Below, in pieces: positions 7,358-38,246 of a stretch of 64,000 bases of DNA. Under the pieces are notes generated by a model. That model was not told the DNA's origin and did not search any database. It saw only the letters and a program-made list of their open reading frames with translations. A program made the position numbers and the translations under genes. Numbering within the stretch: position 1 is the stretch's first letter; each line of letters begins with the position of its first letter. Source of the DNA: Sphingobacteriaceae bacterium (lineage in GTDB: Bacteria; Bacteroidota; Bacteroidia; Sphingobacteriales; Sphingobacteriaceae); assembly GCA_019751895.1 (NCBI GenBank), contig JAIEMU010000140.1, forward strand, positions 1,819 through 65,818, given 5' to 3'.

Positions 7358-8185
7358 ATGTCAAACGCACCAAAAACAGCAGCAGTTAAAAAAGAAAGCT
7401 CAAGCGCATCAGGATTGTTTTCAACCCTAGTAATTCCAATTTGTTTAATCATTGGAGTTTTAATTTTTATGTTTGTAATGGGAGACCCAGCAAACTTTAC
7501 TGACCCATTAGAAAAACATCATCCAAAACCAAACAATTACATGGGTATGGCTTATGCTGGTGGTGTTATTGTGCCAATTTTAGTAGGTATGCTTTTAATG
7601 GTATTCGTGTTTTCTGTTGAGCGTTTAATCGTTATAGGAAAAGCAACAGGTAGTGGTAACTTAGATTCTTTTATCAAAAAAATTCAAGGTTTGTTAAACT
7701 CAAACAACATTGAAGGCGCTATGAGCGAATGTGATAAACAAAAAGGTTCGGTAGCAAACGTTATTAAATCTGGTTTAACTAAATATCGTGAAATGGAAGT
7801 TGACCAAAAAATGGATACTGAGCAAAAATGTTTAGCTATACAAAAATCTATAGAAGAGGCTACAACCTTAGAAATGCCAATGTTAGAGCAAAACTTAACC
7901 ATTATTGCTACATTGGTATCAGTAGGTACGTTATTAGGATTAATGGGTACTGTATCGGGTATGATTAAAGCCTTCGCAGGTTTGGCAAATTCAGGCGCAC
8001 CAGATCAAGCCGCATTAGCAAACGGTATTTCTGAAGCATTGATAAACACCTTAACAGGTATCAGTACCTCTGCCTTGGCAATTATCATGTACAATGTACT
8101 TACTTCTAAAATAGATAAATTGACTTATGCTATTGATGAGGCTGGTTTTAGCATCGTACAAACTTACGCTAGCACCCATAAATAA
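7358..8185 (+). CDS. exbB: MotA/TolQ/ExbB proton channel
   Basis: LLGLMGTVSGMIKAF...GISEALINT. Confidence 0.92.
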   Translation: MSNAPKTAAVKKESSSASGLFSTLVIPICLIIGVLIFMFVMGDPANFTDPLEKHHPKPNNYMGMAYAGGVIVPILVGMLLMVFVFSVERLIVIGKATGSGNLDSFIKKIQGLLNSNNIEGAMSECDKQKGSVANVIKSGLTKYREMEVDQKMDTEQKCLAIQKSIEEATTLEMPMLEQNLTIIATLVSVGTLLGLMGTVSGMIKAFAGLANSGAPDQAALANGISEALINTLTGISTSALAIIMYNVLTSKIDKLTYAIDEAGFSIVQTYASTHK

Positions 8186-13597: not shown

Positions 13598-13667
13598 ATT
13601 TTTTTATTTTTTTTGTTCGGATAAAGGTAAAAAGATTATTTTTATATTCATTTAAACCTATTTTAAA

Positions 13668-14702
13668 TTGATGCAAGCCCAATATAAAACCTTCGATTTG
13701 TTATTAAAACACACGTTTTCGATTGCCAACTTTTCGAGAAATCATACACCCGTAGTCTTATTGAAACTACTGTATGAAGGTTGCGAAGGCTTTGGTGAGG
13801 CGTCTATGGTTCCTTATTTGGGCGAGAACAGTGAAACGGCGATTGATTTTTTAAACAAAGTAGATTGGCAAAATTTTAAGTTTCCATTTGATTTTAAAGA
13901 AGTGAATGCGTACTTAGATTCAATTGCTGAAGGAAATACGGCTGTGAAAGCAGCAATAGATATAGCCTTAAATGATTTGCAAGGAAAATTAGTAGAAAAG
14001 CCTTGTTATGCGCTTTATGGCGCTCAACCTTCGGCTATGCCCGTTACTTCTTATACTTTAGGCATGGATACTTTATCTGTAATCAAACAGAAATTGATGG
14101 ATGCGCAAGATTTTAGGGCAATTAAAGTAAAGTTAGGCTCTGCCGATGACAAGGCAATTATAAAAACGATTAGAAACATAACTCAGTTGCCCTTGTATGT
14201 GGATGCCAATCAAGGTTGGTTGGACAAAGAAAGGGCTTTAGATTTGATCCATTGGCTGGCGGAACAGGGCGTGGAATTGGTAGAACAGCCGATGGCGAAA
14301 TTAGATATTGAAGGCAATGCTTGGCTTACCGAGCGAAGTCCCATTCCGATAATAGCCGATGAATCGGTTCAACGATTAAAAAATATTTCCTCAATTAAGG
14401 GAGCTTATCATGGTATTAATATTAAGTTGATGAAAAGCACAGGCATGTATGAAGCACATCAAATGATTTTAGAAGCCCGCAAATTGGGCATGAAAATATT
14501 GATTGGCTGTATGAGCGAAACCAGTTGTGCAAGTTTGGCAGCCGCCGCTTTAGCTCCCTTATGCGATTGGGCAGATATTGATGGGCCGTGGCTTACCCAA
14601 AACAACCCTTTTGAAACGCCAATATTGGCAAATGGAAAATACCAATTGACCCAAGCTTCGGGTTTAGGTTTGTCGAGTTTAAAAAGCGGTTTTTGGAGTT
14701 AA
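13668..14702 (+). CDS. L-Ala-D/L-Glu dipeptide epimerase (enolase superfamily)
   Basis: KVK, DANQGW, EQP, ADES, NIKLMK and DxDG motifs. Confidence 0.9.
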   Translation: MMQAQYKTFDLLLKHTFSIANFSRNHTPVVLLKLLYEGCEGFGEASMVPYLGENSETAIDFLNKVDWQNFKFPFDFKEVNAYLDSIAEGNTAVKAAIDIALNDLQGKLVEKPCYALYGAQPSAMPVTSYTLGMDTLSVIKQKLMDAQDFRAIKVKLGSADDKAIIKTIRNITQLPLYVDANQGWLDKERALDLIHWLAEQGVELVEQPMAKLDIEGNAWLTERSPIPIIADESVQRLKNISSIKGAYHGINIKLMKSTGMYEAHQMILEARKLGMKILIGCMSETSCASLAAAALAPLCDWADIDGPWLTQNNPFETPILANGKYQLTQASGLGLSSLKSGFWS

Positions 14703-27925: not shown

Positions 27926-29599
27926 ATGAAACACAAATTAAAAATAGCACCAATAATGGTCGCAGCCTTACTTTCTTTCACTTCGTGTAAAAAAGATTAT
28001 TTTGAAATCAATAAAAACCCAAATTTAGCAATAGCAGCACCACCAAAATTGGTTTTTCCTGAGGCGCTTAGATCAACTGCACCACTAATGGTAACGTATC
28101 AAGATTATGGTTCGTGGGTAGTTGGTTATCAGTCAGGAGCCCAAGGTGTATCTTTTTCAGGTACAGTAGGCTATACGCAACAATATACTCATGCTGATTA
28201 CAACACATTGTTCAATAACGCATTTAATAATTTAAAGAATTATCAATATGTGATTAATGCAGCGAAAAGCAATCCAAAAGATGTGCTCTTTTCATCAACT
28301 TCGCGTATAATGAAGTCATTTATTTATCAAATGTTGGTAGATCAGTATGGAGATGTACCTTATACTGATGCTTTACAAGGAAGTAATTTAATTATTCCTA
28401 CTTATGACAAAGCACCAGATATTTATAAATCGTGTATAACAGAAATTAACGAATCAATAGCTTTGCTATTAAAGAATCAAACAAATACTGACGTTAATCC
28501 ATTATCTACTGCTGATATTATGTTTGAAGGAGATATTAGTAAATGGATAAAATTTGCGAATAATATTAAGCTTAGACTTTTGATACGAGCTAAGGATTCT
28601 CCAGAATTGAAAGATTTTGTAACGGCTGAATTTGCTAAATTTCCAACTACAGATGCGTTTTTATTAGAAGACGTTTTGATTAATCCAGGCTATTCTTCAG
28701 CAAGTGATAATATTAATCCAACTTGGAGTACTTATTATGGTACTTTCAATGGTTCAGCTATGGCGGGTATTAGCAGTCAAAGAGTTCCCACTCCATTTAT
28801 ATTAGGATTTTATAATGGGGCTAAATTGAAAGATTTAAGAAGGGGAGCTTTAATTTATAAAAATAGAATAATAAAGGCTGGTGAAGTGGCAGATCCTGCC
28901 CCATTAGTTAATGTTCGACCAGCTTACAGTCAATTAGGTTGGAAAATAGTAGTAAATACACCACAGCAAATAGATGGAACTTTAGATAAAGAGGCTCCTG
29001 CATGGTATACTGGCTCGGGGTCTAAAGCAACCGCAACAGAGGCGCAAGGTATTATTAAAAGTAAATTAGCAGGTCAACCAGTTATGTTAGAATCTGAAAT
29101 ATATTTTTTATTGGCAGAAGCAGCACTTTTAGGCAAGAACTTAAATGGGCTTTCTGATGCGGATAATTTTACCAAAGGTATAGAAGCATCATTTAGATAC
29201 TTATCAAAGTTTGGATCTACTAATGCGGTTAAATCGGGTGAAAATCCAGTAACTGATGCGGCAACATATAAAACAAATAATGCAGGCAACTATTTAGTTG
29301 ATTATTCTTTAGCTAGTTCTACTGAACAAAAATTAGAAGCGATTATTACGCAAAAATATATTGCCCTTAATTTTATACATGGTCATGAGGCTTGGAGTGA
29401 ATTCCGTCGTACAGGTTATCCAAAATCAGATGCATCGACTAATCCAGTTACTAGTTTTAGATCTTTAGAAGGTTTTTCTTCTAGGGCTGACGGTCTTCCT
29501 GTTCGTTTGTTGTATCCTCAAACTGAGATGAATTTAAATTCAAATGCTCCAGTTGGATTGAGTCCGTATAATAACCGTATATTTTGGGATGCCAATTAA
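27926..29599 (+). CDS. susD: SusD/RagB lipoprotein
   Basis: Lipobox FTSC-KKD; YGDVPY, W.KFAN..KLR, IITQKYIA and EAWSEFRRTGYP motifs. Confidence 0.93.
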   Translation: MKHKLKIAPIMVAALLSFTSCKKDYFEINKNPNLAIAAPPKLVFPEALRSTAPLMVTYQDYGSWVVGYQSGAQGVSFSGTVGYTQQYTHADYNTLFNNAFNNLKNYQYVINAAKSNPKDVLFSSTSRIMKSFIYQMLVDQYGDVPYTDALQGSNLIIPTYDKAPDIYKSCITEINESIALLLKNQTNTDVNPLSTADIMFEGDISKWIKFANNIKLRLLIRAKDSPELKDFVTAEFAKFPTTDAFLLEDVLINPGYSSASDNINPTWSTYYGTFNGSAMAGISSQRVPTPFILGFYNGAKLKDLRRGALIYKNRIIKAGEVADPAPLVNVRPAYSQLGWKIVVNTPQQIDGTLDKEAPAWYTGSGSKATATEAQGIIKSKLAGQPVMLESEIYFLLAEAALLGKNLNGLSDADNFTKGIEASFRYLSKFGSTNAVKSGENPVTDAATYKTNNAGNYLVDYSLASSTEQKLEAIITQKYIALNFIHGHEAWSEFRRTGYPKSDASTNPVTSFRSLEGFSSRADGLPVRLLYPQTEMNLNSNAPVGLSPYNNRIFWDAN

Positions 29600-29621
29600 T
29601 TAATTATTTAATATAAAAATC

Positions 29622-30545
29622 ATGAAAAAATATTCAAAAATTATAGCTTTAATGCTAATGTCATTTGTTAGTGTTATAAGTTCTTGTATTAAGCAGGATG
29701 CTATATATAAAGATGGGGGTAACAATGGTATGATACAAATAGATTTACCAACTCATAATATTGCGGCACCTCGTTTATACCCTGTTAAACCAACATCTTT
29801 AATGGTGGAAAAAAGTGTCGATTTTCCTATTACAGTTGAGTATATGGGCACAGAGCCTGCACCTCAAGATGTAACGATAGAGCTTATTTTAAATAATGCC
29901 GCTATTGACGCTTATAATGCCTACATGGATGAAAAAAAGTACACAGGGGATAAGTATGAGGCTTTACCTGCAAATATGTACACTTTACCTACATCATTAA
30001 GCGTTGTGATACCAAAAGGACAAAGAAAAGTAGTGGTGCCAATTACTTGTAACACTACTTTGTTTGACGATACCAAAAAATATGCTTTGGCATTCACAAT
30101 TAAGTCGGTAAGCGCAGGAACAATAAGCGCCAATTATAGTACAGGTTTATACGCCATCACGCGTAATAAATTTGATGGTATTTATACATTGGAAGTAGGA
30201 AGTACGATGGCTAGTTCTAATACTGCAGTAGCAACGGGTTCAATAGCAGGTGTCGCGGATATTAGTTTAATATCTGAGACAGGAGACAGACTTTTATTTG
30301 TGCCTATTTGGGCAGATGGAACAAAGGTTGTTGATTTGGGTAATACAACAATTACAGGCACAGCGGTTTCTGCAGCAGGAAATACAACGCTAAAAAACAC
30401 AGGAACAAATAAGTATGATGCGGCTACTAAAACTTATACGTTAAATTTCCAGTGGCTTTCAAAATCTACATCAGATCCAACAGGAACAACAACTTTTACA
30501 AATACTGCGGTTATGATTTTGAAGTATAAAGGTTCAAGATTTTAA
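29622..30545 (+). CDS. DUF1735-like surface lipoprotein
   Basis: Lipobox ISSC; IDAYN...YEALP..MYTL..V.IPKG...YALAFTI pattern, downstream of susD. Confidence 0.7.
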   Translation: MKKYSKIIALMLMSFVSVISSCIKQDAIYKDGGNNGMIQIDLPTHNIAAPRLYPVKPTSLMVEKSVDFPITVEYMGTEPAPQDVTIELILNNAAIDAYNAYMDEKKYTGDKYEALPANMYTLPTSLSVVIPKGQRKVVVPITCNTTLFDDTKKYALAFTIKSVSAGTISANYSTGLYAITRNKFDGIYTLEVGSTMASSNTAVATGSIAGVADISLISETGDRLLFVPIWADGTKVVDLGNTTITGTAVSAAGNTTLKNTGTNKYDAATKTYTLNFQWLSKSTSDPTGTTTFTNTAVMILKYKGSRF

Positions 30546-30567
30546 GTAAAGTATTTTAATTTTCTCA

Positions 30568-30610
30568 ACCCTCTCACTCAAATTCTATTCGAGTGAGGGG
30601 GTTTATTTTT
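30568..30610 (+). terminator. Terminator of the susCD operon
   Basis: AACCCTCTCACTC-loop-GAGTGAGGGGGTT followed by a T-rich tract. Confidence 0.75.
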
Positions 30611-30696
30611 TAACACATTTTACCCTGAGCGCAGCGAAAGACCTAAGAGGATAAAGGGCAATAATTTTATAGATGTAAAAAAGTGAAGTGTTAATT

Positions 30697-30906
30697 TTTC
30701 GGTCAAAGGCCATGAAAATTAGATGAGCACATTTGCAAAATGCGCTAGTGAGTAAGGGTTTGCAAAACCTACGATTTGGGTTCGACATGACAAATATCGA
30801 ACAGCGGGAGTAAAATTCATGCAGATTTTAATTGGCACTCTATTACATTGCCAACAACCCAATGAATTAGCAGGAAGATAAATTTTATGACAAAGGAAGT
30901 GGCTGA
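30697..30906 (+). repeat. Repeat copy A: 111-bp palindromic core (30697-30807) plus 99-bp right arm (RAYT-like remnant)
   Basis: Direct alignment with copies B and C. Confidence 0.92.
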
Positions 30907-31212
30907 TTAAAGTTGTAAAGTTAATTTTAGGTGTCCTCCTAAGCCAGTTTGGATAATTTTCATCAAGGTCGAAAGTCGAATGTCGCTTGCATTATTTTCA
31001 ATTCGAGAAATATACGATTTGTTTGTTCCGCACTTTTCGGCAAGTTCTTCTTGTGTCATACCAAGTTTATGTCTTGCTTCTTCAAGTAAAACGCCAAGTT
31101 GGAAACTTTCAAATTCTTGCTCCCATTGCTCTCTTTTTTTTGCTCCTCTTTTTCCGTATTTGTTGTCAAGAATTTCGTCAAGCGTTGTGATGTTACTTTC
31201 TTTCGTTTTCAT
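30907..31212 (-). CDS. Xre-HTH antitoxin (HigA-like)
   Basis: LGMTQEELAEKCGTNKSYISRIENNASDIRLSTL; directly downstream of a RelE/Gp49-like gene. Confidence 0.88.
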   Translation of the reverse strand: MKTKESNITTLDEILDNKYGKRGAKKREQWEQEFESFQLGVLLEEARHKLGMTQEELAEKCGTNKSYISRIENNASDIRLSTLMKIIQTGLGGHLKLTLQL

Positions 31213-31534
31213 ATTCTACCTTTATTTTTAAAGCTTTTTCAATTTCAGTTTTTGGTGTTTTTTGAGATTTTTTTTGAAAACCATTTCCTAAAACGACTAG
31301 ATTCCCTTTGTCGAAAAAAGCAAAAATTCTAAAAATGTTTCCACCTAATTCTACCCGAACTTCGAAAAGTCCGTCTGTCCCAGTTATATGGTCAAAATAT
31401 TTTTTAGGAACTCTGTCAATTGTCCGTAACAGATTTAAAGTTCATTCGATTTTTCGTTGAACCTCGTCTGTTTGGTCTTGGTAGAAGTTTAAAAAATATT
31501 TCTTATATGCAACAACTTGTCTTACGGCTTTCAC
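31193..31534 (-). pseudogene. RelE/HigB (Gp49-like) toxin with a nonsense codon
   Basis: Manual translation from GTG 31534: MKAVRQVVAYKKYFLNFYQDQTDEVQRKIE*TLNLLRTIDRVPKKYFDHITGTDGLFEVRVELGGNIFRIFAFFDKGNLVVLGNGFQKKSQKTPKTEIEKALKIKVEYENERK*; single TGA at 31442-31444. Confidence 0.88.
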
Positions 31535-31616
31535 TTTACAAAGTTAACTATTCAGACAACAATGTGCAAACTTTTAAGAGTTGTTTGTTGAGCAATATTG
31601 TTTTAGAGTGGTTGTC

Positions 31617-31775
31617 TTGAAGTAAATCAAACAGTCTGTGACTACCAAGATAGAGGTATTTGTATTTCGGTCAAAGACCATGAAAATTAGATGAGCACAT
31701 TTGCAAAATGCGCTAGTGAGTAAGGGTTTGCAAAACCTACCATTTTGGTTCGATATTTGTAATGTCGAACAGCGG
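31617..31775 (+). repeat. Repeat copy B: 48-bp left arm plus 111-bp core (31665-31775)
   Basis: Direct alignment with copies A and C. Confidence 0.92.
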
Positions 31776-31819
31776 AGGGACTTCGGGATTTCAAATACCG
31801 AAGAGAGAGTGAGGAACTT

Positions 31820-32158
31820 TTACTCGTTTAATAGTACTTCAACTTCTTTTTGTAAAATAGGTAGATTTTTGATGACAATTCCCCAAATTACATCATCAGA
31901 AACGGAATCATATCCATGAATTATTCTATTGCGTACATCAACAATTTTTCTAGCGTTTGAAATTGAAATTTCACCATTTTCTTTAAGAATTCGGCTCATT
32001 GCTTCTCCAATGATTTCGATGTTTCTTTCAATTGCTCTTTTGGTTCTTAAATCATTTTGATAAATTTCAAACATTTTTGGAGTTTCAATAAAGTAACTTT
32101 CAATTTCATTTATTGAGCTTAAAATGTCATAAAGCCAAGTTTTAAGAGAATTATCCAT
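31820..32158 (-). CDS. HepT-like HEPN RNase toxin (DUF86)
   Basis: AIERNIEIIGEA and RNRIIHGY (RX4HXY) motifs. Confidence 0.9.
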   Translation of the reverse strand: MDNSLKTWLYDILSSINEIESYFIETPKMFEIYQNDLRTKRAIERNIEIIGEAMSRILKENGEISISNARKIVDVRNRIIHGYDSVSDDVIWGIVIKNLPILQKEVEVLLNE

Positions 32159-32450
32159 AAATCAATATTTTGCTTTGATTTAATGTTTTTCTAAAATATG
32201 GATTTTTGATAGCTTTTTCTTCTAATAAATCAATACTTCTTTTTAAAATATTTTCAAGGGAAAATTTTAAGTTGTAGTAGTTGTCTCCATAATCTAAAAC
32301 ATCCAAATTTTCAAAATCAACTATCAAATCAACATCGCTTTCGTTGTTGAATTTGTCGGTTAAAACAGATCCAAAAGCGTATAAAGATTTTACTTTGTGC
32401 GCTTTGCATAAATTTAAGATGTCTTTATTGTGATTTTCTAATAAGTTCAT
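32151..32450 (-). CDS. MntA-like minimal nucleotidyltransferase antitoxin
   Basis: FGSVLTDKFNNESDVDL (GSX10DXD); probable start MNLLEN at 32450. Confidence 0.9.
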   Translation of the reverse strand: MNLLENHNKDILNLCKAHKVKSLYAFGSVLTDKFNNESDVDLIVDFENLDVLDYGDNYYNLKFSLENILKRSIDLLEEKAIKNPYFRKTLNQSKILIYG

Positions 32451-32596
32451 GTAATTGTTGATTTTATTCAAAAGTACAAAAAAATAATTAGCCTTCAATT
32501 TTCACTTTTGTTTTTTGCAAAGGCTAAAAATGTTGATGTGCAGAACTAATTTGTTTTTTTACACTATCTAGCGCATTTTTCCGTAGGATAAATGTG

Positions 32597-32854
32597 TTGA
32601 AGTAAATCAAATAGTCTGTGACCGCCAAGATAGTGGTATTTGTATTTCGGTCAAAGACCATGAAAATTAGATGAGCACATTTGCAAAATGCGCTAGTGAG
32701 TAACAGTTTGCAAAACCTACGATTTTGGTTCGAGATTACAAATGCCGAACAGCGGGAGTAAAATTCATACAGATTTTAATTGGCACTCTATTACATTGCC
32801 AACAACCCAATGAATTGGCAGGAAGATAAATTTTATGTCAAGGGAAGTGATTGA
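32597..32854 (+). repeat. Repeat copy C: left arm + core (32645-32755) + right arm (complete element)
   Basis: Shares the left arm with B and the right arm with A. Confidence 0.92.
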
Positions 32855-32956
32855 CTCTCTTCAAAAATTAATGATTCTATCGATTCTAAAAATGGTTTTA
32901 ACCCAATTGTCTAAAAAATAATTTTGTACATTTGGATGAAAAATATTTTGAATAGG

Positions 32957-33163
32957 ATGAGAGTTTTATTAGACATAAAAGATAGCAAGGCCGCCCACTT
33001 AATGGAGGTGCTAAAAGGTTTATCTTACGTAAAAACCAAGACTATTTCTGAAGAAAAAGCTTTTTTGATAGAAGAAGTTAAGGAAGCGGTAGAAGAAATG
33101 AAATTGATTAAAGCAGGCAAAAAGAAAGCTCGGAACGCAGAAGATTTTTTAAATGAGTTATAG
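32957..33163 (+). CDS. Putative antitoxin
   Basis: MRVLLDIKDSKAAHLMEVLKGLSYVK...KEAVEE...GKKKARNAEDFLNEL; overlaps a RelE-like start. Confidence 0.75.
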   Translation: MRVLLDIKDSKAAHLMEVLKGLSYVKTKTISEEKAFLIEEVKEAVEEMKLIKAGKKKARNAEDFLNEL

Positions 33164-33200
33164 TGTTAAATCTATCCAAGTTTTTGAAAAGCAAGCAAAA
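33153..33200 (+). pseudogene. 5' stub of a RelE/HigB-like toxin
   Basis: MSYSVKSIQVFEKQAK resembles RelE/HigB N-termini; similarity then stops and the frame runs into the convergent gene. Confidence 0.6.
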
Positions 33201-33225
33201 AGCTTCTTAATTTACACACGTTATA

Positions 33226-33465
33226 TTATGGTGTTTTTCTTGTTCGCTTTTGTCGAAAAAAATAGGATACTCCAAATATTAAGTTTGCGACTGTGCCAAA
33301 ATAAAGGGTGTAATATTGTTCTTTAGATAAACAAGGAGGACAATTAATATCGTTAATACAAGGCTCACATTGCGGATTGTAATAGATAAACAACGCACAT
33401 AGTATTAGATTAATCGCAATTAATTTTATAAAATGATTACGAATGATTTTAGTTAGTAAAGGCAT
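33226..33465 (-). CDS. Small two-TM protein with a Cys-rich loop
   Basis: TM-PQCEPCINDINCPPCLS-TM. Confidence 0.65.
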   Translation of the reverse strand: MPLLTKIIRNHFIKLIAINLILCALFIYYNPQCEPCINDINCPPCLSKEQYYTLYFGTVANLIFGVSYFFRQKRTRKTP

Positions 33466-33491
33466 GATATTTTCTTTCTAAATCAAAACAC

Positions 33492-33692
33492 TTAACCCTC
33501 CTCAAAAATCTCAACGACTCTACCTACTTGTCCATCTTCCAATCGTACTTTTATGCCTCGACTATGAAAAGGGGCGGAGGTAAGCAATTTTTCTACAATT
33601 CCGCGGGTGCGGTTTCCGTTTCTTTGGTCTTTTTTAAGGATAATATCTACTTCTAATCCTGGGTAAATATCATTTCTATTTTGTCCGTTCAT
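33492..33692 (-). CDS. YwbE/DUF2196 family protein
   Basis: V.I.LKKDQR.G..TRG.V..LLT....H.RGIKVRLEDGQVGRV; start MNGQNR at 33692. Confidence 0.88.
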   Translation of the reverse strand: MNGQNRNDIYPGLEVDIILKKDQRNGNRTRGIVEKLLTSAPFHSRGIKVRLEDGQVGRVVEIFEEG

Positions 33693-33696
33693 TTTT

Positions 33697-35733
33697 TTAT
33701 TTTTCAAACCTTTCGGCAAACATTTTTTCTAAAGCAAACATTTCATCACGTAGGCGGGCAGCGAGTAAAAAGTCCATTTCTTTGGCTGCGGTGGTCATCT
33801 CTTTGCGGGTTTTGGCAATGGTTTTTTCCAAATCGGTTTTGCTCATAAATTGTACCACAGGGTCGGCGGCAATGCTGATTTGGTTCGTTTCTTGATACTT
33901 TTTAACATGCGCTTTGTTGTCCGAAAAATCCAAAACCGAACTTTGTTCAATAATTTCTTCTTTAGATTTGCCAACCGTTTTGGGTGTAATGTTGTGTTCG
34001 AGGTTATAGGCAATTTGTTTTTCTCTACGTCTATTGGTTTCGTCTATGGTGCGTTGCATCGACTGAGTCATGTTATCGGCATACATAATCACACGTCCTC
34101 GGTCGTTTCTAGCGGCTCTGCCAATGGTTTGTATCAAAGCCCTGTCCGAACGTAGAAAACCCTCTTTGTCGGCGTCTAAAATCGCTACTAAACTTACTTC
34201 AGGCAAATCCAATCCTTCTCTCAATAAGTTGATACCTATCAAAACATCAAATTCTCCTAAACGCAATCCTCTTAAAATTTCTACACGTTCCAAAGTTTTC
34301 ACTTCCGAGTGGATGTATCGACATTTTATATTTAACCTGTCCATGTATTTGGTTAATTCTTCCGCCATGCGCTTGGTAAGCGTGGTGACTAAAATACGGT
34401 CGCCCATTTTGATGGTTTTGTCGATTTCGTCCAACAAATCATCTACTTGGTTGATGGCAGGTTTTACCTCAATTAAGGGGTCTAACAATCCCGTAGGTCG
34501 GATCACTTGCTCAATGATGTGTCCATTTGTTTTTTGTAGTTCATAGTCGGCTGGTGTTGCACTTACATAAACCGTTTGTGGAGCAAGGGACTCGAATTCT
34601 TCAAAATTTAAAGGTCGGTTGTCTAAAGCCGAAGGCAATCGAAAACCATATTCTACCAAAGATAGTTTTCGGGAGCGGTCGCCGCCATACATGGCTCTAA
34701 TTTGAGGGACGGTAACGTGACTTTCGTCTATCACCATCAGGTAATCATCTGGAAAATAATCGAGTAAGCAGAAAGGTCTCATGCCTTGCGATCTTCCATC
34801 AAAAAAACGAGAGTAATTTTCTATACCCGAACAATAGCCCAATTCTTTCATCATTTCGATGTCGAAATTTACCCTTTCTTCCAATCTTTTGGCTTCTAGC
34901 CGATGACCATCGTTGTCGAGTTGCGTTTTTCGTATTTCCAACTCTTGTTGAATAGCCCAAATGGCATCATTAAATTTTTCTTTTGGTGTAACGAACAAAT
35001 TAGCAGGATACAAAGCCATTTCGGTAAATTTTTCGATGGTTTTGCCGGTGGCATAATCTATTTCGCTCAATTCTTCTATCTCATCGCCAAAAAACGAAAT
35101 GCGATAGGCGCAATCTAAATAAGCAGGGAAAACATCTACGGTATCTCCCTTAACCCTAAAAGTACCTCGCTTGAAATCGTCGATGGTTCGGGCGTATAAA
35201 ATTTGAACTAAAGTATGTAAAAAAGTGTTTCTTGATATTTTTTGCCCCACGGCAAAGCGAAATACAGATTTCGAAAAATCTTCGGGATTTCCCATACCAT
35301 AAATGCAAGAGATAGAAGAAACGACAATCAAATCTCTTCTGCCACTCATCAAAGAGGAGGTGGTGCGCAAACGCAATTTCTCAATCTCTTCATTGATACT
35401 TAAATCTTTTTCGATGTAGGTATTGGTACTTGCTATAAAAGCTTCGGGCTGATAATAATCGTAGTAGGAAACAAAATAATTGACCGAATTTTCAGGAAAA
35501 AACTGTTTAAACTCGCCATATAACTGAGCGGCTAAGGTTTTGTTGTGGCTTAAAATTAGCGTAGGCTTTTGGGTTTCTGCAATGAGGTTGGCAATGGTAA
35601 AAGTTTTGCCGGAACCTGTTACGCCTAACAAAGTTTGGTAATTTTCGTTGGCTTCTACTCCTTGTACCAATTGTTTGATGGCCGTTGGTTGGTCGCCGGT
35701 TGGCTTGTAATCGGATACGAGTTTAAATTTCAT
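33697..35733 (-). CDS. uvrB: Excinuclease ABC subunit B
   Basis: PTGDQP, GVTGSGKT, YYDYYQPEA, DESH and INLLREGLD motifs; start MKFKL at 35733. Confidence 0.98.
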   Translation of the reverse strand: MKFKLVSDYKPTGDQPTAIKQLVQGVEANENYQTLLGVTGSGKTFTIANLIAETQKPTLILSHNKTLAAQLYGEFKQFFPENSVNYFVSYYDYYQPEAFIASTNTYIEKDLSINEEIEKLRLRTTSSLMSGRRDLIVVSSISCIYGMGNPEDFSKSVFRFAVGQKISRNTFLHTLVQILYARTIDDFKRGTFRVKGDTVDVFPAYLDCAYRISFFGDEIEELSEIDYATGKTIEKFTEMALYPANLFVTPKEKFNDAIWAIQQELEIRKTQLDNDGHRLEAKRLEERVNFDIEMMKELGYCSGIENYSRFFDGRSQGMRPFCLLDYFPDDYLMVIDESHVTVPQIRAMYGGDRSRKLSLVEYGFRLPSALDNRPLNFEEFESLAPQTVYVSATPADYELQKTNGHIIEQVIRPTGLLDPLIEVKPAINQVDDLLDEIDKTIKMGDRILVTTLTKRMAEELTKYMDRLNIKCRYIHSEVKTLERVEILRGLRLGEFDVLIGINLLREGLDLPEVSLVAILDADKEGFLRSDRALIQTIGRAARNDRGRVIMYADNMTQSMQRTIDETNRRREKQIAYNLEHNITPKTVGKSKEEIIEQSSVLDFSDNKAHVKKYQETNQISIAADPVVQFMSKTDLEKTIAKTRKEMTTAAKEMDFLLAARLRDEMFALEKMFAERFEK

Positions 35734-35800
35734 AGTTCGCAAAGTTAAGCTACTCTTTTGATTATGCAAAGCATCGTCAAGAAATAGATTTCTGCCGCAT

Positions 35801-35848
35801 AAAAAAAGCGATGCAATCGTTATTTGACTGCATCGCTTTCTGTTTTTT
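35801..35848 (-). terminator. Terminator after the M1 peptidase
   Basis: AAAGCGATGCAGTC-loop-GATTGCATCGCTTTTTTT on the minus strand. Confidence 0.8.
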
Positions 35849-35864
35849 AAAATTCAGCTTGAAT

Positions 35865-38246
35865 TTATTTTTTCTTTTCTAATTGCATTGGGTTTGAACC
35901 AACGGATTGACCTCTTGCTGGCGCAGCAGCACTACGAGCTTTAAACAATTGTAGTTTTGAAACTTCAGCAGCTTCGGCACCCCAAACGTTGTTTTTCTCA
36001 TCAATATCTGCTGTTTCACGCATTGGGTCTAATTTTATAGAAGCCACTTCTTTGTCGTGAACATAAAATTTAGATGTTTTTTGTTCATTGAGTCTCCAAA
36101 TTTGCGCTGGGATTTTATCGGTCCAAGTGCTACCGTCTTTGAACGTAAATTGAACGATAATTGGCATCACTAAACCGCCTTTATTGCTAAAATGGACTTC
36201 ATAGAAAAACTTATTGCTGTATTTTTCCTTTTCCTCTGCGGTAAATTCTTCGGCAGGTAAAATAGCAGGCTCAGGCATTTTTTTGTTAGCCAAAGTGGTG
36301 TCTATTTGTACCAAACCACGGGTATATTTCCAATAAAAATCTCTAGCTTCTAAGTCTGTATCGGTATAAAACTTGCGATTTTCGGCTCTATTTCTAATTT
36401 TAGAAATGTCCTCAAATGCGTTTACCATTGGTTTGTCTATTCCTTTTGGTTTTCTGCTTTCAGGTTTAGAAATCGCAGCATTGAAATCTGCTTTGGCATA
36501 TTTTACGCTGTCCAATGCAATATCACATGGGTCGGTGGTATAAAACCAACCTCTCCAAAACCAATCTAAATCTTCGCCGCTGGCATCTTCCATGGTTCTG
36601 AATAAATCGGCAGGAGTAGGGTGTTTGAACGCCCAACGTCTCGAATATTCTTTAAAAGCATAGTCAAATAATTCTCTACCCATAATGGTTTCACGCAAAA
36701 TGTTTAATCCTGTTGCAGGTTTTGAATACGCGTTTGGACCAAAATTTACGATGTTTTCAGAATTTGACATGATAGGCTCCAACTGATCTTTTGGCAATTT
36801 CATGTAGTTTACAATCGTATGTGCAGGACCTTTTTTGCTTGGGAATTTGTTGTCCCAAAGTTCTTCGGTTAAATATTCAACAAAAGAGTTCAAACCTTCG
36901 TCCATCCAACTCCATTGACGCTCGTCACTATTGATAATCATCGGGAAAAAGTTGTGTCCAACTTCGTGAATGACTACGCCCAACATTCCGTTTTTAGTAG
37001 CTTCGCTGTAAGTTCCGTCTGCATCGGTACGACCATAGTTAAAGCAAATCATTGGATATTCCATTCCGTTGGCAGCTTCAACACTTTGCGCTACTGGGTA
37101 TGGATAAGGAATGGTAAAATCTGAATAGGTTTTGATGGTATGCGCAACGGCACGAGTAGAAAATTTGCGGTACAAATTGTAGGCTTCTTTTCCGTAAAAA
37201 CTCATGCACATCACTTTATTGCCTTCAATGTCTTGTGCCATGGCATCCCAAACAAACTTTGGAGAAGAACCCCAAGCAAAATCACGAACATTGTTGGCTT
37301 CAAAAATCCAAGTTTTTTTAGCTTCGGTGTTGTTTTTTTCTGCATTTTTAGCTTCTGCAAGCGTTACCACTTCAACAGGAGCATTTGCATTTTTAGCTTT
37401 TTGGTAGCGCTCCAATTGTACTGGAGTTAAAACAGAATCGTAGTTTTTACATTCTCCTGTTGAGGTAACCATGTGGTCAGCAGGAACAACCATTTTTACT
37501 TTAAAGTTTCCAAAAGTTAAAGCAAATTCACCTCTTCCTGTAAATTGATGATTTTGCCATCCTTGAAAATCGCTATACACACACAAGCGTGGATACCATT
37601 GTGTCATCGTAAAAATGTAATTTTTATCCTCAGGGAAGTATTCATATCCTCCACGACCACCACCAGCTATTCTGTCTGTGATTTTGTAATTCCAATCTAC
37701 GTTGAAAACGAATTTCTCGCCAGATTTTAGCGCAGGAATTTCAACACGCATCATGGTTTTGTTGACGGTATATTTTAATTTTTTACCATTTATATCGCTA
37801 ATGTTTACGATGTTGATGCCTTGTCCATTGTCTAAATTTTTATCCACAGATTTATCTAAAGCTGTAGTGCTTATTTTAGAGGGCATTTTGCTAGCGCTTT
37901 GGTAATTGGCGTTTTTTAAGTTGTTGTGCTCATTTTCATCCAATTGCAACCATAAATAAGTCAGCACATCGGGCGAATTGTTGAAATAGGTAATGGTTTC
38001 GCTACCTGTAAGAAGTTGCTTTTTTTCATCCAATTCACAATTGATGTTGTAATCGACTTTTTGTTGCCAATATTTTACACCTGCAGCGCCACTTGCCGTA
38101 CGTTGTTCGTTTGGCGTAGGCAAAATACCACCCAGTTGTTCAAATTTGTTTCCGTGGTTACTTCCAGGATTGTGGAGGATGTTTTGGGCGCTGGTGGTTT
38201 GGCTGTAAATGGCGAGCACCAAGGCGCATTTGAAAATTTTATTCAT
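35865..38246 (-). CDS. Exported M1 family zinc aminopeptidase
   Basis: NGMEYP, HEVGH...WMDEG (HEXXH+E); signal peptide. Confidence 0.93.
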   Translation of the reverse strand: MNKIFKCALVLAIYSQTTSAQNILHNPGSNHGNKFEQLGGILPTPNEQRTASGAAGVKYWQQKVDYNINCELDEKKQLLTGSETITYFNNSPDVLTYLWLQLDENEHNNLKNANYQSASKMPSKISTTALDKSVDKNLDNGQGINIVNISDINGKKLKYTVNKTMMRVEIPALKSGEKFVFNVDWNYKITDRIAGGGRGGYEYFPEDKNYIFTMTQWYPRLCVYSDFQGWQNHQFTGRGEFALTFGNFKVKMVVPADHMVTSTGECKNYDSVLTPVQLERYQKAKNANAPVEVVTLAEAKNAEKNNTEAKKTWIFEANNVRDFAWGSSPKFVWDAMAQDIEGNKVMCMSFYGKEAYNLYRKFSTRAVAHTIKTYSDFTIPYPYPVAQSVEAANGMEYPMICFNYGRTDADGTYSEATKNGMLGVVIHEVGHNFFPMIINSDERQWSWMDEGLNSFVEYLTEELWDNKFPSKKGPAHTIVNYMKLPKDQLEPIMSNSENIVNFGPNAYSKPATGLNILRETIMGRELFDYAFKEYSRRWAFKHPTPADLFRTMEDASGEDLDWFWRGWFYTTDPCDIALDSVKYAKADFNAAISKPESRKPKGIDKPMVNAFEDISKIRNRAENRKFYTDTDLEARDFYWKYTRGLVQIDTTLANKKMPEPAILPAEEFTAEEKEKYSNKFFYEVHFSNKGGLVMPIIVQFTFKDGSTWTDKIPAQIWRLNEQKTSKFYVHDKEVASIKLDPMRETADIDEKNNVWGAEAAEVSKLQLFKARSAAAPARGQSVGSNPMQLEKKK

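Follow-up and report, generated by a model that had tools for sequence, protein, structure and literature searches.

A relic of a RAYT transposase 3' end in a mosaic repeat with double-hairpin REPs and toxin-antitoxin cassettes

The TnpA_REP transposases of subclass 2.4 (Quentin et al. 2018, PMC6006769), which correspond to RAYT group 4 (Bertels et al. 2017, PMC5581495), have the signature NH[IFV]H, WQ and YIxNNP (PMC6006769, Table 1), and REP insertions inside their genes have been reported (PMC6006769). In the REPtron arrangement, a RAYT gene is flanked by REPs, and REPs also occur as mosaic clusters, the BIMEs (PMC2817692, PMC3733652). For subclass 2.6 of Bacteroidetes, "atypical secondary structures" have been described (PMC6006769). 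Decayed RAYT genes and REP clusters are already known, and the arm of the repeat that is analysed here is a further instance of such a relic.

In the window, which is the whole stretch of 64,000 nt that was analysed, a core repeat is found in three copies (~30645-30807, 31613-31775, and 32593-32755), two of which extend into a 99-nt arm. The core consists of an A/B element and a REP (part C), and toxin-antitoxin cassettes lie between the copies (Table 1), at a locus that extends from susD/E to uvrB. The arm is probably a dead stub of a subclass 2.4 RAYT gene that was truncated at a BIME-like REP cluster and was copied together with this cluster in a local duplication.

Table 1. Coordinates of the repeat modules, of the neighbouring cassettes, and of related features elsewhere in the genome (window positions unless a contig or locus is given)
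Feature	Position	Strand	Remarks
A/B element copy 1	30688..30748	+	right half only clearly homologous
REP (part C) copy 1	30757..30807	+	5-3-5 hairpin, TACGAT, 10-3-10 hairpin 30780-30802, AGCGG
Arm copy 1	30808..30906	+	remnant of a subclass 2.4 RAYT gene (last ~50 codons)
Arm copy 1, deletion junction (52 nt)	near 30840/30841	+	
Arm copy 1, nonsense codon TAG	30868-30870	+	TGG in copy 3
Arm copy 1, original TGA stop	30904-30906	+	
Positions that differ between the arms	30821, 30869, 30890, 30894, 30902, 30903		
HigBA-type cassette	30907..31576	-	between copies 1 and 2
HTH_3 antitoxin	30907-31212	-	intact; stop codon 30907-30909 touches arm end
Gp49/HigB-like toxin	31196-31555	-	one in-frame TGA (…QRKIE*TLNLL…)
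A/B element copy 2	31590..31716	+	left end degenerate; clear homology from 31613
REP (part C) copy 2	31725..31803	+	hairpin 31748-31770, loop TGT, AGCGG; no arm
HepT	31820-32158	-	between copies 2 and 3; cassette 31820..32498
MntA nucleotidyltransferase	32151-32498	-	partner of HepT
A/B element copy 3	32568..32696	+	complete
REP (part C) copy 3	32705..32755	+	hairpin 32728-32750, 2 stem mismatches, AGCGG; abuts arm
Arm copy 3	32756..32854	+	same relic as arm copy 1
Arm copy 3, SKIHTDFNWHS	32757-32789	+	frame +1
Arm copy 3, deletion junction	near 32788/32789	+	
Arm copy 3, YYIANNPMNWQEDKFYVKGSD plus TGA	32789-32854	+	frame 0; TGA 32852-32854
Intact subclass 2.4 RAYT paralogue	L165:2027-2629 (G000:C74:9026-9628)		200 aa; NHIH, WQ, YIINNP
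2.6-type RAYT gene	L002:1390-1797 (G000:C13)	-	NHIH, FWEEGYHGEE; TAA after codon 135
REP family examples	C5:4735-4857; C9:5966-6101 and 7603-7625; C42:8757-8882; C168:1565-1685; C172:1501-1858; others		
Dispersed A/B copies	C34:11650-11945; C9:7650-7910; C74:80-330; C60:60-300		TIR CTAGCGCATT...

RAYT ancestry and decay of the arm

The two arm copies are identical at 93 of 99 positions, and the similarity ends abruptly with their common TGA, 3' of which only 10 of 30 nt agree. With blastn, no copies besides these two were found in the assembly, which comprises 2.32 Mb in 217 contigs; as it is ~80% complete, more arm copies or an intact parent gene could be hidden in the unassembled part. Both arms read SKIH(A/T)DFNWHS in frame +1 and (L)YYIANNPMN(*/W)QEDKFY(DKGSG/VKGSD), followed by the TGA, in frame 0. 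The second of these peptides was followed up with the motif YI.NNP.NW..DKF, which was back-translated to a DNA pattern of 21 fixed and 8 degenerate bases and used to scan 596 Gb of species genomes. It occurs at at least 119 loci, compared with ~0.002 expected by chance according to our own calculation, and the matches listed come nearly all from Bacteroidota. Among the matches listed, the motif is the C-terminus of an ORF, ...WQSRFHDHIIRN..F..I.NYI.NNP.NW..DKF plus 0-10 residues, and these ORFs mostly have a length of ~180-260 aa, with some being truncated or running off the contig end.

Also the first peptide has its counterpart in this family, as (R)KIHADF.WQS recurs just upstream of the motif in L003, L004, L006, L028, L045, L046, and L118, and the arm carries a variant of it, which lies outside the search pattern, at the homologous position. 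The arm reads FNWHS there, with the Q of the WQ motif changed to H in an upstream context, KIHADF.W, that matches the family. The Y motif YIxNNP with the catalytic tyrosine is present as YIANNP in both arm copies, and the stop codon is placed as in family members, within a few codons of DKF. The full-length relatives of the arm carry NH.H, WQ, and YIxNNP, which is the signature of subclass 2.4; they match the NCBIfam model NF047646 (REP_Tyr_transpos) with E-values from 3e-14 to 5e-17, under its 80-bit cut-off, and Pfam Y1_Tnp (PF01797) at the borderline. The 24-aa arm peptide itself is too short for these collections and gave no match in Pfam or NCBIfam. In an hmmsearch with a profile built on 23 full-length homologues that stem from congeneric species, carried out with all filters off on the 128,281 six-frame fragments of the genome, the fragment of arm copy 3 ranked second (E=0.0011, profile positions 171-185 of 186), directly after the intact paralogue of the same genome on C74 (E 5e-75). 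The closest DNA match to the arm, at L063, has 87.5% identity over 48 nt, and when 235 genomes of the genus were searched with the family profile and the resulting loci by blastn with the arm, no full-length parent closer than ~80% was found. Judged from its sequence, the arm is a remnant of a subclass 2.4 gene for a RAYT-type Y1 (HuH) transposase, namely of its 3' end.

Neither tblastn nor hmmsearch detected RAYT-like sequence, such as the N-terminal half with its HuH motif NH[IFV]H, 5' of the arm or at other places in the window. The only weak match in the window, at 13666-13803 (E=1.6), was considered as an N-terminal RAYT remnant and rejected, being antisense inside a 344-aa gene. Some of the related subclass 2.4 proteins (L045:6919-7620, L118:1205-1816, and L006:2607-3215) have low-complexity inserts between HuH and WQ, namely PTGTP-type repeats, NAT repeats, or T/E runs, and these may be translated repeat DNA, like the REP insertions that have been reported for the subclass.

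The arm has lost an internal stretch. Two separate segments of it, nt 3-33 and nt 35-84, match L045 in collinear order, L006 gives a similar picture, and in global alignments to these two loci 52 nt of the homologue, which encode RFHDHIIR...IQN, are absent from the arm. As 52 is not a multiple of 3, the frame changes within the arm, so that the peptide of the WQ region is no longer in frame with the YIxNNP peptide. The endpoints of the deletion are deduced from distant homologues because no close full-length parent was found. Arm copy 1 has in addition a TGG>TAG nonsense change, and the secondary structure of the arm is not above that of shuffles (z = -0.30); the arm is therefore a decayed coding relic that is non-functional now.

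Much of the preliminary description of this locus was thereby borne out. It had seen the 99-bp arm twice with about 6 differences, and these are indeed 6 of 99 positions; the two-frame translations were reproduced in both copies, and the placement of the TGA at the exact end of the repeat agrees with the loss of identity behind it. Its reading of the arm as a RAYT/Y1 transposase 3' end is supported by the motif scan, the hmmsearch, and the collinear DNA matches, and the HIIR-containing stretch that it believed to be deleted corresponds to the 52 nt that are missing in comparison to L045 and L006. The profile comparison that it had proposed turned out two-sided, as the short arm escapes the Pfam and NCBIfam models but is recognised by the profile that was built from the genus.

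A mosaic of separately dispersed modules

Part C, the REP, has a length of 51 nt (e.g. 32705-32755) and is composed of a 5-3-5 hairpin, the spacer TAYGAT, ~4 nt, a 10-3-10 hairpin with the loop RCA, and AGCGG. A strict census gave 22 copies of this family in the genome, while a looser pattern was swamped by AT-rich noise. The main stem shows compensatory changes, with G-C/C-G 6:11 at pair 1, A-T/G-C 11:10 at pair 6, and C-G/A-T/G-C 8:4:5 at pair 7, and the small stem occurs in the variants GGTTT/AAACC, GGATT/AATCC, and GGGTC/GACCC. On C5, C9, C42, C168, and C172, copies form REPIN-like inverted pairs at a distance of ~100 nt. As single-stranded DNA, a canonical copy folds with z = -6.2; in the window, copies 1 and 3, with two stem mismatches each, fold poorly, and the hairpin of copy 1 has the loop ACA and adjoins the arm without any spacer. 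Copy 2 contains a second variant hairpin (31781-31803) and has a DNA fold of z = -4.3. At its first hairpin (31748-31770), the loop is flipped to TGT, compared with ACA in copies 1 and 3; the stem is a near-perfect palindrome, so that only the loop appears flipped, and the flanks keep their orientation. A conserved GTAG (or CGTC) tag is not seen in the family: the hairpins have TAYGAT or nATGAT between them, and CCTAC (= GTAGG) occurs only in a minority of copies. An Rfam scan with E-value thresholds of the region 28000-36000 assigned no RNA family to the repeat.

The A/B element has a length of ~130 nt, is bordered by a terminal inverted repeat (CTAGCGCATT.../...AATGCGCTAG), and contains two REP-like "feet" (GGTC-NNN-GACC) and a hairpin with the loop GCA. 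In the window, copy 1 may have a strongly diverged left half at ~30612-30687. Further A/B copies occur without part C or arm on C34, C74, C9, C60, C20, and C2; the one on C34 lies directly upstream of rpsL (ribosomal protein S12), and some of the dispersed copies have a variable insert between their halves. The junction of A/B element and part C is common to all three window copies, and that of part C and arm to copies 1 and 3. Because the junctions are identical, the window copies descend from one local arrangement and not from independent insertions. Scans of 185,579 species genomes for the exact patterns of the deletion junction and of the A/B-REP junction gave 0 matches elsewhere, as did a scan of metagenome contigs for a 37-nt motif of the arm's 3' part. 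Dispersed copies with identical ends, by which a MITE is recognised, were not found for the arm-bearing repeat, as the ~80% complete assembly holds two of them, both at this locus. On the sequence level, the repeat is a BIME-like mosaic rather than one element, and its A/B and C modules are dispersed independently.

REP partners and origin of the locus

The genome encodes one intact subclass 2.4 RAYT (on C74) and one 2.6-type RAYT (on C13) that is truncated; there is no intact 2.6 gene in the assembly. The C74 gene, which probably starts with GTG and misses Pfam Y1_Tnp by 0.1 bit, has one REP of the part C family ~130 nt downstream, which leaves a link of these REPs to subclass 2.4 conceivable in this genome. 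The C13 gene stops just before the expected tyrosine motif YIHxNP and has a REP of the part C family 25 nt upstream, in inverted orientation. Downstream of it, at L002:1822-1880, a motif of ~23 nt, AAAAACCATAC(G/A)TCCTATTTTTA, is present twice.

The comparison covered 30 loci with 2.6-type genes of the family and 29 loci with 2.4 genes of the genus, the latter taken from genomes other than this one. Genes of the 2.6 type lie between 10-3-10 hairpins, whose loops read TGY at one flank of the gene and RCA at the opposite flank (for example at L124, L138, L141, L143, L146, and L147), and at L141 and L146 the full REP form with small hairpin and AGCG tail is present. Beside the 29 subclass 2.4 loci of the genus, only terminators and no hairpins of the part C type were found, nor were there any such hairpins beside the nearest relatives of the arm, L045, L063, and L118. 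Many 2.4 genes in other orders of Bacteroidota are flanked by a different REP, GTAGAGACG...CGTCTCTAC. These GTAG-tagged REPs, with the consensus GTAGAGACG(N)...CGTCTCTAC, occur often on both sides of the gene (L017, L050, L082, L110, L004, L021, L034, L062, L075, and L088), with Chitinophagales, Saprospiraceae, Bacteroidales, and other groups as hosts. Moreover, the REP beside the arm precedes the relic, although its orientation is the one usual for REPs that follow a RAYT gene. Most likely, this REP is not cognate to the gene from which the arm descends, and the arm would thus be no guide to the mobilising enzyme. The match between the part C architecture and the REPs that flank 2.6-type genes points to a 2.6-type RAYT, and not to the class of the arm's parent, as the likely mobiliser of these REPs.

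Three claims of the preliminary description are not supported in the form in which they were made. The repeat had been regarded as a non-autonomous derivative of one RAYT gene and its REPs, but upstream of SKIH nothing is RAYT-derived and the rest is a mosaic; for a mobility of the arm-bearing repeat, there is no sign in two local copies with junctions that are absent elsewhere; and the arm, which was thought to point to a candidate mobilising enzyme, is of subclass 2.4 whereas the adjoining REP has the architecture of the 2.6 type. The proposed search for full-length RAYT genes with the same REPs was successful only in so far as the C74 gene has one such REP downstream, which the 29 subclass 2.4 loci of the genus lack.

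Only the last ~50 codons are left of the RAYT gene, the HuH half being absent, and the 5' break of the relic lies exactly at the AGCGG tail of the REP. We infer the following order of events, and for the last of them also the mechanism: the RAYT gene would have been truncated at or by the REP cluster, then the stub would have suffered the 52-nt deletion that is common to both copies, and finally the unit of A/B element, REP, and relic would have been duplicated locally, with copies 1 and 3 now being ~6-8% diverged. Copy 2 would have lost the relic or never had it. The part C REPs are predicted to be single-stranded DNA hairpins of the kind that RAYT enzymes handle, and as REP insertions are known within 2.4 genes, a REP-associated truncation is in character for the subclass. 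By analogy to these intragenic REPs (PMC6006769), the REP at the break could also be a cognate insertion.

The tight packing of toxin-antitoxin operons between the repeat copies, where the stop codon of HigA touches the arm, raises the question whether the mosaic repeats are boundaries or recombination sites of a cassette array, integron-like or driven by REPs and RAYTs, with the stub as a part of one boundary variant. The HigBA cassette (~670 nt), whose leader comprises ~20-45 nt depending on the true start, is found again, with both ends unchanged, in further species of the genus, at L206 (G156:C13), L205 (G225), and L207 (G254). G156 has two HigBA cassettes in alternation with a TIR-bearing repeat of 179 nt, and in G254 the cassette is flanked by pieces of this repeat, which would agree with an array. 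However, the 179-nt repeat has no blastn similarity to the mosaic of this genome with its A/B element, the two cassettes of G156 are 90% identical and a plain tandem duplication explains them, an integron integrase was not found in the genome (the best TIGR02249 score is 76.5 bits, with a cut-off of 265), and A/B and REP copies occur also singly, beside housekeeping genes such as rpsL. Such an array is therefore considered unlikely.

It is quite unlikely that a single RAYT gene and its own REPs gave rise to the entire repeat (~260 nt) as a MITE-like, non-autonomous derivative, which the cognate full-length RAYT could still mobilise in trans. Such a derivation would fit with the RAYT origin of the arm, with the REP that abuts it, with the intact C74 gene and its downstream REP of the same family, and with the frequent flanking of 2.4 genes by REPs elsewhere in Bacteroidota. 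Against this stand the restriction of the arm to two copies within 2 kb, the absence of the junction motifs from other genomes and metagenomes, the occurrence of the A/B and C modules apart from each other with boundaries of their own, the "downstream" orientation of a REP that is upstream of the relic, its 2.6-type architecture, and the absence of 5' RAYT sequence.

Even less probable is that the REP-hairpin mosaic forms the junctions of a toxin-antitoxin cassette array in which cassettes are exchanged by a single-strand, RAYT/REP-dependent mechanism, as an integrase-free analogue of an integron. This would explain why unrelated cassettes with sharply conserved ends lie between near-identical repeats here, and why in congeneric species they lie between TIR-bearing repeats of a different kind. 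A merely coincidental resemblance to RAYTs, with the arm as ordinary intergenic repeat DNA, is effectively refuted, since the shortness of both arm peptides and the failure of the arm peptide alone in Pfam and NCBIfam are outweighed by the genome-wide match at the correct C-terminal position of the profile, the second independent match (KIHADF.W.S) in the adjacent frame at the right spacing, the DNA matches to RAYT 3' ends of up to 87.5%, the deletion alignment, and a stop codon where family members stop, few codons from DKF.

Comparison with known RAYT and REP systems

The preferred reading, a dead 2.4 stub that was truncated at a REP cluster and duplicated with it, places the arm next to the subclass 2.4 genes, with which it shares YIANNP, the NW..DKF tail, the position of the stop codon, and KIHADF.W. 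Unlike them, it is dead: it lacks the HuH half and an internal 52 nt, its reading frame is shifted, the WQ motif reads WH, and a nonsense codon interrupts one copy. The intragenic REPs that were reported for the subclass keep the reading frame, whereas the REP here marks a truncation, and it is not of the GTAGAGACG...CGTCTCTAC type that is found by many 2.4 genes. As the stub is of subclass 2.4 and lies beside hairpins that look like partners of subclass 2.6, it should not be used for naming the mobiliser.

With REPtrons and BIMEs, the locus has in common that clustered extragenic palindromic variants lie beside RAYT-derived sequence, and that the REP family is multi-copy, with covariation in the stems and inverted pairs. 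It is different in that the GTAG tag is not conserved, that there is a second small hairpin, and that its RAYT-derived stub belongs to a different subclass. The mosaic nature of the repeat, with modules that are dispersed independently of each other, also has a bearing on how the neighbouring toxin-antitoxin cassettes are to be read.

As to subclass 2.6 (RAYT group 5), genes with NH[ILV]H ... YIHxNPV(R/K)AG in related Flavobacteriaceae genomes have inverted 10-3-10 hairpins on both sides, but the C13 member in this genome ends after codon 135, ahead of the tyrosine motif. A double-hairpin REP family with covariation is documented in this small Flavobacteriaceae genome, where the single 2.6-type RAYT is truncated, and the REPs could be outliving their transposase there. 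The second small hairpin of part C matches the "atypical secondary structures" that were reported for subclass 2.6.
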